NCBI RefSeq assembly: GCF_036507355.1
Contig: NZ_AP027877.1
DNA length: 64,000 nt
Strand: one strand, 5' to 3'
Origin: Escherichia coli
GTDB taxonomy: Bacteria; Pseudomonadota; Gammaproteobacteria; Enterobacterales; Enterobacteriaceae
Part shown: in pieces, positions 58,051 through 62,296 of the stretch
Layout: each line of letters begins with the position of its first letter
Numbering within the stretch: position 1 is the first letter of the stretch
Made by a program: the position numbers and the translations under genes
Notes under the pieces: model-generated
The model's database searches: none
Seen by the model: the letters and a program-made list of their open reading frames with translations, nothing else
What the model was told of the DNA's origin: nothing

Positions 58051-61269
<3,219 letters not shown>

Positions 61270-61284
61270 GGTAATGACTCCAAC

Positions 61285-61788
61285 TTACTGATAGTGTTTT
61301 ATGTTCAGATAATGCCCGATGACCTTGTCATGCAGCTCCACCGATTTTGAGAACGACAGTGACTTCCGTCCCAGCCTTGCCAGATGTTGTCTCAGATTCA
61401 GATTATGTCGCTCAATGCGCTGAGTGTAACGCTTGCTGATAACGTGCAGCTTTCCCTTCAGGCGTGATTCATACAGCGGCCAGCCATCCGTCATCCATAC
61501 CACGACCTCAAAGGCCGACAGCAGGCTCAGAAGACGCTCCAGTGTGGCCAGAGTGCGTTCACCGAAGACGTGCGCCACAACCGTCCTCCGTATCCTGTCA
61601 TACGCGTAAAACAGCCAGCGCTGACGTGATTTAGCACCGACGTAGCCCCACTGTTCGTCCATTTCAGCGCAGACAATCACATCACTGCCCGGTTGTATGC
61701 GCGAGGTTACCGACTGCGGCCTGAGTTTTTTAAGTGACGTAAAACCGTGTTGAGGCCAACGCCCATAATGCGTGCACTGGCGCGACAT
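61285..61788 (-). CDS. insB: IS1 InsB (transposase C-terminal part, made as InsAB' by -1 frameshift)
   Basis: 167-aa ORF ...[58 protein letters not shown]... Confidence 0.93.
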
Positions 61789-61982
61789 CCGACGCCATTC
61801 ATGGCCATATCAATGATTTTCTGGTGCGTACCGGGCTGAGAGGTGGTGTAAGTGAACTGTAGTTGCCATGTTTTACGGCAATGAGAGCAGAGATAGCGCT
61901 GATGTCCGGCAGTGCTTTTGCCGTTACGCACCACGCCTTCAGTAGCGGAGCAGGAAGGACATCTGATGGAAATGGAAGCCAC
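61707..61982 (-). CDS. insA: IS1 InsA (transposition inhibitor/DNA-binding)
   Basis: 91-aa [46 protein letters not shown] (zinc-finger Cys pattern); A6C slippery site (minus-strand AAAAAAC) at 61725-61731. Confidence 0.93.
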
Positions 61983-62037
61983 GCAAGCACCTTAAAATCA
62001 CCATCATACACTAAATCAGTAAGTTGGCAGCATTACC

Positions 62038-62296
62038 CAAAATTGACGTTGCGCGTATCTACAATTGTCTGATTCAGAACAATATCGACACGATAAACCC
62101 CTGGCGTTATTTTTTGTCCTTTTTCGAAACGAGACAAATCGGCCACCATTGAGGGATCATCTTTGAAAAAGGCTGGATCGAACCAGGTTTCAGCTTGTGC
62201 ATTGAACGCTGCCGACACAAACACCACCAGCCCACCAATAAACGATGGCACTCCACCAGAGCTTAACAGGCTGTGTTGTCGGTGAGTTCTATACAT
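62038..62296 (-). pseudogene. elfC: elfC (ycbS) usher, N-terminal fragment (signal peptide + first ~86 codons)
   Basis: MYRTHRQHSLLSSGGVPSFIGGLVVFVSAAFNAQAETWFDPAFFKDDPSMVADLSRFEKGQKITPGVYRVDIVLNQ... parallels FimD N-terminus; runs into IS1 end. Confidence 0.88.

Follow-up and report, generated by a model that had tools for sequence, protein, structure and literature searches.

The elfADCG-ycbUVF (Ycb/ELF) chaperone-usher operon of the window, the 64,000-nucleotide stretch of an Escherichia coli contig analysed here (NZ_AP027877.1, assembly GCF_036507355.1), is very probably, judging from its sequence, an operon in advanced decay which is dead several times over. Its lesions are four and independent: an IS1 insertion in the usher gene elfC, a 192-bp deletion within the same gene, a second IS1 accompanied by loss of elfA, and a frameshift in ycbV. 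The strain is predicted to be unable to make Ycb/ELF fimbriae, the cause being multi-hit decay of the operon and not one reversible IS insertion. Even with the IS excised precisely, neither a normal usher nor Elf fimbriae would be expected to return.

Ycb/ELF are gamma-1 chaperone-usher fimbriae which are functional when an intact operon is artificially expressed (PMC7098969). The E. coli gene order at the locus is ssuE, elfA, elfD, elfC, elfG, ycbU, ycbV, ycbF, pyrD. The broken usher gene in the window lies between elfD and elfG, near ssuE and pyrD, which identifies it by locus as the ElfC/YcbS ortholog. The operon has a G+C content of 48% (51% for the remainder of the window), the neighbouring 23 kb are IS-free and collinear with ordinary E. 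coli, and the best identity to RefSeq complete E. coli genomes is 99.0–99.4%. This modest identity and the divergent IS1 had suggested a Shigella origin, which was rejected because the 87-aa elfC 5' product and ElfG are GenBank E. coli proteins (BED23014.1 and BED23010.1) and because the neighbouring DNA lacks IS and has the ordinary E. coli arrangement. The features discussed below are collected in the Table, together with IS1 events found at the same locus in other genomes.

Table. Features of the elf operon in the window (window coordinates) and IS1 events in the elf genes of other E. coli genomes (gene coordinates).
Feature	Position	Strand	Remarks
ycbF chaperone gene	56272..57009	-	intact, 245 aa
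ycbV	57010..57537	-	1-bp deletion, T5 to T4, about 57058-57061
ycbU	57497..58039	-	intact, 180 aa
elfG	58051..59121	-	intact, 356 aa; GenBank protein BED23010.1 (locus tag VEE46_)
elfC 3' fragment	59112..61269	-	2158 nt; lacks 192 bp present in intact elfC
192-bp deletion junction	60060..60066	-	one 7-bp repeat TGGCTAC (gene orientation) left
Target-site duplication, elfC 3' side	61262..61269		CAAAATTG
IS1 copy 1, IS1F-type	61270..62037	-	768 bp; transposase genes co-directional with elfC
insB frame of IS1 copy 1	61285..61788	-	167-aa ORF; reached from insA by -1 frameshift at AAAAAAC
insA of IS1 copy 1	61707..61982	-	91 aa, GTG start
elfC 5' fragment	62033..62296	-	87-aa ORF: 86 ElfC residues + Gly, stop from IS1 end
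Target-site duplication, elfC 5' side	62038..62045		CAAAATTG
elfD chaperone gene	62321..63022	-	intact, 233 aa; IS1 copies on both sides
elfA remnant	63105..63110	-	last codon + stop
IS1 copy 2, IS1A-type	63111..63878	-	768 bp; orientation as copy 1; no target duplication
Simple IS1 insertion	elfC nt 286-294		9-bp duplication
Simple IS1 insertion	elfC nt 380-387		8-bp duplication
Simple IS1 insertion	elfC nt 593-601		9-bp duplication
Simple IS1 insertion	elfC nt 599-607		9-bp duplication
Simple IS1 insertion	elfC nt 630-637		8-bp duplication
Simple IS1 insertion	elfD nt 112-120		9-bp duplication
Simple IS1 insertion	elfD nt 274-282		9-bp duplication
IS1-linked elfA removal (EC09, 23AR1101, HCP4S3_I4, WP5-S17-ESBL-10)			no duplication; end points all differ
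IS1-linked partial elfC removal (HS30-1, 2017.02.03CC, EC2001)			no duplication; end points all differ

Members of the IS1 family are about 768 bp long and carry imperfect terminal inverted repeats of roughly 23 bp (GGTGATGCTGCCAACTTACTGAT-like). The copy within elfC (copy 1) starts with GGTAATGACTCC / GGTAATGACTCCAACTTACTGAT and finishes with GGCAGCATTACC / ATCAGTAAGTTGGCAGCATTACC, and its termini are complementary at 20 of the first 23 positions. It includes the overlapping insA and insB frames with the A6C frameshift motif AAAAAAC at nt 307. It is identical to the K-12 IS1F at 762 of 768 positions (99.2%) and shows 99.9% identity to E. coli elements annotated as "IS1 family transposase". 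The K-12 MG1655 IS1F has the same length, the ends GGTAATGCTGCC...GGAGTCATTACC, insA, the A6C site and insB; it differs by six substitutions and by its genomic location, and its insB7 is annotated as a pseudogene while the corresponding frame of copy 1 is open. The ORFs of copy 1 are open, and it may be capable of transposition. IS1 is widespread in the species (it occurs in 4970 of 5426 complete E. coli genomes, at a median of 11 places in each). Coordinates, ends and identity to K-12 IS1F all bear out the preliminary description of a 768-bp IS1 at this position.

That description also reported an identical 8-mer on either side of the element, and both copies were recovered on re-reading. A 9-bp duplication is ruled out, since the flanks ACAAAATTG and CAAAATTGA differ beyond 8 bp. 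Two fixed junction positions would show the same 8-mer by chance with a probability of 4^-8, or ~1.5e-5. The empty site of K-12 contains CAATTTTG (gene orientation) as a single copy at elfC nt 252-259, without the duplication, as is expected of an IS1 target, and when L001, L009, L012 and L014 are compared with the window the two IS flanks map to reference coordinates which overlap by exactly 8 nt. Because uninterrupted relatives have the 8-mer only once, the repeat was created by the insertion and is a true target-site duplication.

The insertion cuts ElfC after residue 86. The 5' product, which includes the signal peptide and only the beginning of the PapC_N domain, is identical to GenBank BED23014.1 (locus tag VEE46_). 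Exact-protein look-ups with the 3' ElfC fragment, taken either as 704 aa (TTG start) or as 696 aa (ATG start), returned no record. Joining 59112-61269 to 62046-62296 yields 2409 nt, that is 802 codons and a stop, with zero internal stops and the junction peptide ...NVNFVEITPEKGIAACLT..., so that removal of the IS and one repeat does rejoin the frame, as had been proposed. The product is not, however, the "otherwise intact usher" of the preliminary description. Full-length ElfC has 866 aa (elfC, 2601 bp), aligns end to end with FimD (E = 3e-262) and comprises the Pfam domains PapC_N (39-182), Usher (201-777) and PapC_C (787-851); the rejoined frame is 802 codons long, 192 bp are missing from it, and it has 44 differences from K-12 elfC over 2409 aligned nt. 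With PapC_N split by the IS1 and 64 residues of Usher gone, the window lacks a single polypeptide of ~866 aa carrying PapC_N, Usher and PapC_C, and its elfC appears to be a pseudogene of the FimD/PapC usher family and not a functional member.

The missing 192 bp encode ElfC residues 488-551 (64 codons; EFNDGDDEDTPMWSRYYNLFYTKRGKLQVNISQQLGEYGSFYLSGSQQTYWHTDQQDRLLQFGY), which lie inside the Pfam Usher barrel domain. The gap is seen in alignments to intact and nearest alleles, those of L001, K-12 and L009/L012/L014. Intact alleles carry TGGCTAC at each end of the segment that was lost, with a spacing of exactly 192 bp, and the junction in the window (GGATGGCTACAACACG) retains one of the two. This arrangement is typical of deletions that arise by slippage or microhomology. 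About 4,000 complete E. coli genomes match, and of the 25 best matches listed none has the deletion: each of them aligns in at least two pieces around that point. L015 (GCA_021425525.1), an independent second assembly to which a look-up with elfG led, shows 100% identity to window positions 52051-61322 (9272 bp), a stretch which takes in both the deletion and 53 nt belonging to the IS1 end. Since the deletion is thus found in a second assembly, it is real and lineage-specific and no assembly artefact.

We assume that the loss of 64 barrel residues inactivates the usher. Some natural in-frame length variation is probably tolerated: the ElfC proteins of L009, L013 and L014 have 861 aa, their genes differing from those of the window, L001 and K-12 by a 15-nt in-frame indel. 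The preliminary description would have taken a frameshift or stop relative to elfC homologs as evidence against a simple insertion into an intact gene. Such a test is blind to this lesion because the 192-bp deletion is in frame. An open frame after in silico excision of an IS is therefore no proof of an otherwise intact gene, and the 64-codon deletion was exposed only by comparing lengths with an intact ortholog.

The second IS1 (copy 2) shows 91% identity to copy 1; aligned with an annotated IS1A, it agrees at 765 of 768 positions. No repeat is common to the sequences …CTATTAATA and GAGTAATTC… that flank it. It stands in place of K-12 locus positions 708-1402, so that sequences which now flank it are 695 bp apart in K-12, and the missing DNA comprises the 161 bp before the elfA start codon and elfA itself through its penultimate codon. 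The elfA promoter and ribosome-binding site are almost certainly gone together with this major-subunit gene. The likeliest course is that an IS1A-type IS1 inserted and that an IS1-promoted adjacent deletion then removed elfA and upstream DNA, a process which would leave no duplication. Two former IS1 copies recombining with each other would have produced the same arrangement, an outcome indistinguishable from an adjacent deletion. The two copies now flank a 1073-bp segment, the 5' part of elfC and elfD, in the manner of a composite transposon. Another assembly, L016 (GCA_905398635.1), is 100% identical to window positions 52051-59261; its contig starts (1-75) with an IS1A-type end identical to that of copy 2, joined inside the 3' end of elfC (window 59261). 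This junction may represent a further one-sided adjacent deletion from copy 2 or a separate insertion.

The fourth lesion, in ycbV, alters the C-terminus after roughly codon 143 (the last ~28 residues) by comparison with ycbV of L009 and K-12. In L001 ycbV is likewise annotated as frameshifted, and the gene may decay often.

Relatives of the window give some indication of the order in which these lesions arose. Two short-read assemblies, L006 and L007 (SRR17480487 and SRR31122001), show 100% identity to the window along the 1073 bp made up of elfD and the elfC 5' part and carry IS1 at the same elfC site in the same orientation, yet both keep an intact elfA, which places the elfC insertion before the elfA loss. 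The close relatives L009, L012, L013 and L014, which have the same ElfG protein, lack both the elfC IS and the 192-bp deletion, so these two lesions are recent. From such junctions and allele comparisons, which are read directly from the sequences, we infer the mechanisms, the polarity and, for the most part, the sequence of events in the following scheme. An IS1F-type IS1 transposed into elfC nt 252-259, duplicating 8 bp and cutting the usher gene. IS1 insertions are known to be polar, and this one would block transcription of the genes downstream. In three separate events, a slippage-type deletion between the two 7-bp direct repeats would have taken 192 bp from elfC, the IS1A-type element arrived and elfA was lost, and ycbV lost one base in its run of Ts.

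The IS1 might instead have been a late, neutral hit in a gene already dead from the 192-bp deletion, in which case it inactivated nothing. L015, the one assembly besides the window to show the deletion, has the IS too, and the L006 and L007 contigs end at the IS, before the deletion point, both of which leave room for this order. Against it, the IS predates the loss of elfA, as L006 and L007 indicate, and the closest IS-free relatives (L009, L012-L014) are all without the deletion, no deletion-only intermediate being seen. We regard a deletion-first history as rather unlikely.

It is very improbable that an otherwise intact usher was lost to one clean IS1 transposition and that this by itself abolished Elf fimbriae. 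The perfect target duplication and the open rejoined frame are what such an event would leave, but a rejoined product of 802 instead of 866 aa, with its Usher deletion, the absence of elfA and its upstream DNA and the ycbV frameshift are not; L015 argues against the 192-bp deletion being an assembly error. The earlier proposal made loss of the usher the block to assembly of Elf fimbriae, but the IS does not decide the phenotype, elfA being gone and ycbV frameshifted.

The insertion in elfC, in the orientation found in the window, occurs in 0 of 5426 complete RefSeq E. coli genomes. In strain 19SZHZ886Rt (L008) and in the drafts L004 and L005, an IS1A occupies the identical elfC site with the same 8-bp duplication, in the opposite orientation. 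The coincidence of site and duplication invites the idea that these and the window's IS1 descend from one insertion. This we find very hard to credit: the elements are of different types (IS1F and IS1A, identical at 702 of 768 positions) and face opposite ways, and the flanks differ at 13 of 1073 positions, against 0 of 1073 in relatives of the window's own lineage. We know of no mechanism that flips an IS in place while keeping its duplication. The 19SZHZ886Rt insertion is instead an independent event in another lineage.

In other complete E. coli genomes elfA, elfD or elfC has been hit, independently, at least 17 more times by IS1 insertions or IS1-linked deletions. The loci covered were L008, L002, L003 and L019-L031; besides L008, 16 complete-genome loci were mapped onto K-12, and H46, a record of the same length as CFS3246 with identical coordinates, was left out. 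Among nine other simple insertions examined in elfC and elfD the duplication is of 8 bp in three and of 9 bp in six; with the window, 8 bp is thus found in 4 of 10, and is therefore ordinary for IS1. These loci supplied the answer on duplication length, a literature search on 8-bp versus 9-bp IS1 duplications having returned nothing directly usable.

In all, ~18 separate IS1 events fall in the 4-kb elf region among roughly 5,400 complete genomes and the window, and the 5' region of elf is a recurrent IS1 target. Two pairs of sites coincide or nearly do so, 252-259 being hit twice and 593-601 and 599-607 lying 6 bp apart. If 8 to 17 insertions were scattered at random over the gene, one exact coincidence would arise with a probability of 1-5%, a figure to be read with the fact that the search favoured insertions near the query. 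The coincident hits at nt 252-259 suggest, without proving, a local hot spot. IS1 prefers targets with an AT-rich core and G/C at the ends, a preference which the site presumably fits. A stronger version, which we entertain only tentatively, is that nt 252-259 (CAATTTTG) is a true IS1 hot spot imposing an 8-bp and not a 9-bp stagger, and that the 5' end of elf is a preferred target, repeatedly and independently destroyed across lineages through AT-rich preference or through selection against Elf fimbriae in some niches. The catalogue of recurrent elf events offers a small data set on IS1 target preference and on IS1-promoted adjacent deletions.

An assembly artefact, in which a repeat was misplaced, is an extremely improbable source of the IS copy or of its position: IS1 is multi-copy and drafts often break or collapse there (L004 has a collapsed IS with N), but the 5' junction is found in L006 and L007 and the 3' junction in L015, from different data sets.

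In one of the other loci, that of E. coli O68:H12 strain 97.3 (L022, NZ_CP061758.1; 4716-5483), an IS1A lies inside elfA (nt 185) without a duplication, and its other side is joined to the type 3 fimbria mrk cluster (mrkF, mrkD, mrkC), so that the element appears to link two fimbrial loci. The elfC gene is also found split, frameshifted or internally stopped with no IS1 in it (L011, L012, L023, L022 and L030; in L011 and L012 the split gene gives one product of 609 aa and another of 272 aa), and it probably decays by point mutation too. Overall, elfC was found in 4035 of 5426 complete E. coli genomes. This fits the association of the ycb operon with phylogroups A, B1, D and E and the frequent disruption, through insertion elements or truncation, of E. 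coli chaperone-usher operons (PMC3559732).

The elfC event itself is textbook IS1 pseudogenisation, and the importance of the case beyond correct annotation is small: it illustrates the ordinary decay of a dispensable fimbrial operon. In our searches on elfC or ycbS with IS1 we found no paper describing the window's allele.

The window's elfC has the locus and synteny of elfC (ycbS), the usher gene of the K-12/O157 Ycb/ELF gamma-1 system, and differs from it in being split after codon 86 and in lacking codons 488-551, within an operon which lacks elfA and has a frameshifted ycbV. Its closest counterparts are other IS1-disrupted elf operons, for example those of AS19, DX6, EM06-18-14, CFS3246, 19SZHZ886Rt, EC09 and WP5-S17-ESBL-10. 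The sites and end points of these differ from those of the window, save for the identical site of 19SZHZ886Rt; none of these loci has the 192-bp deletion junction, and among the regions examined only the window has two IS1 copies in the operon. Shigella offers well-described cases of adhesin genes lost to IS, and in Shigella and EIEC dispensable adhesin operons disappear, as in the window, through IS insertion and IS-associated deletion (PMC7373316, PMC6854044); unlike these, the source here carries the GenBank name Escherichia coli, and the other 23 kb examined carry no IS and keep the arrangement of ordinary E. coli.
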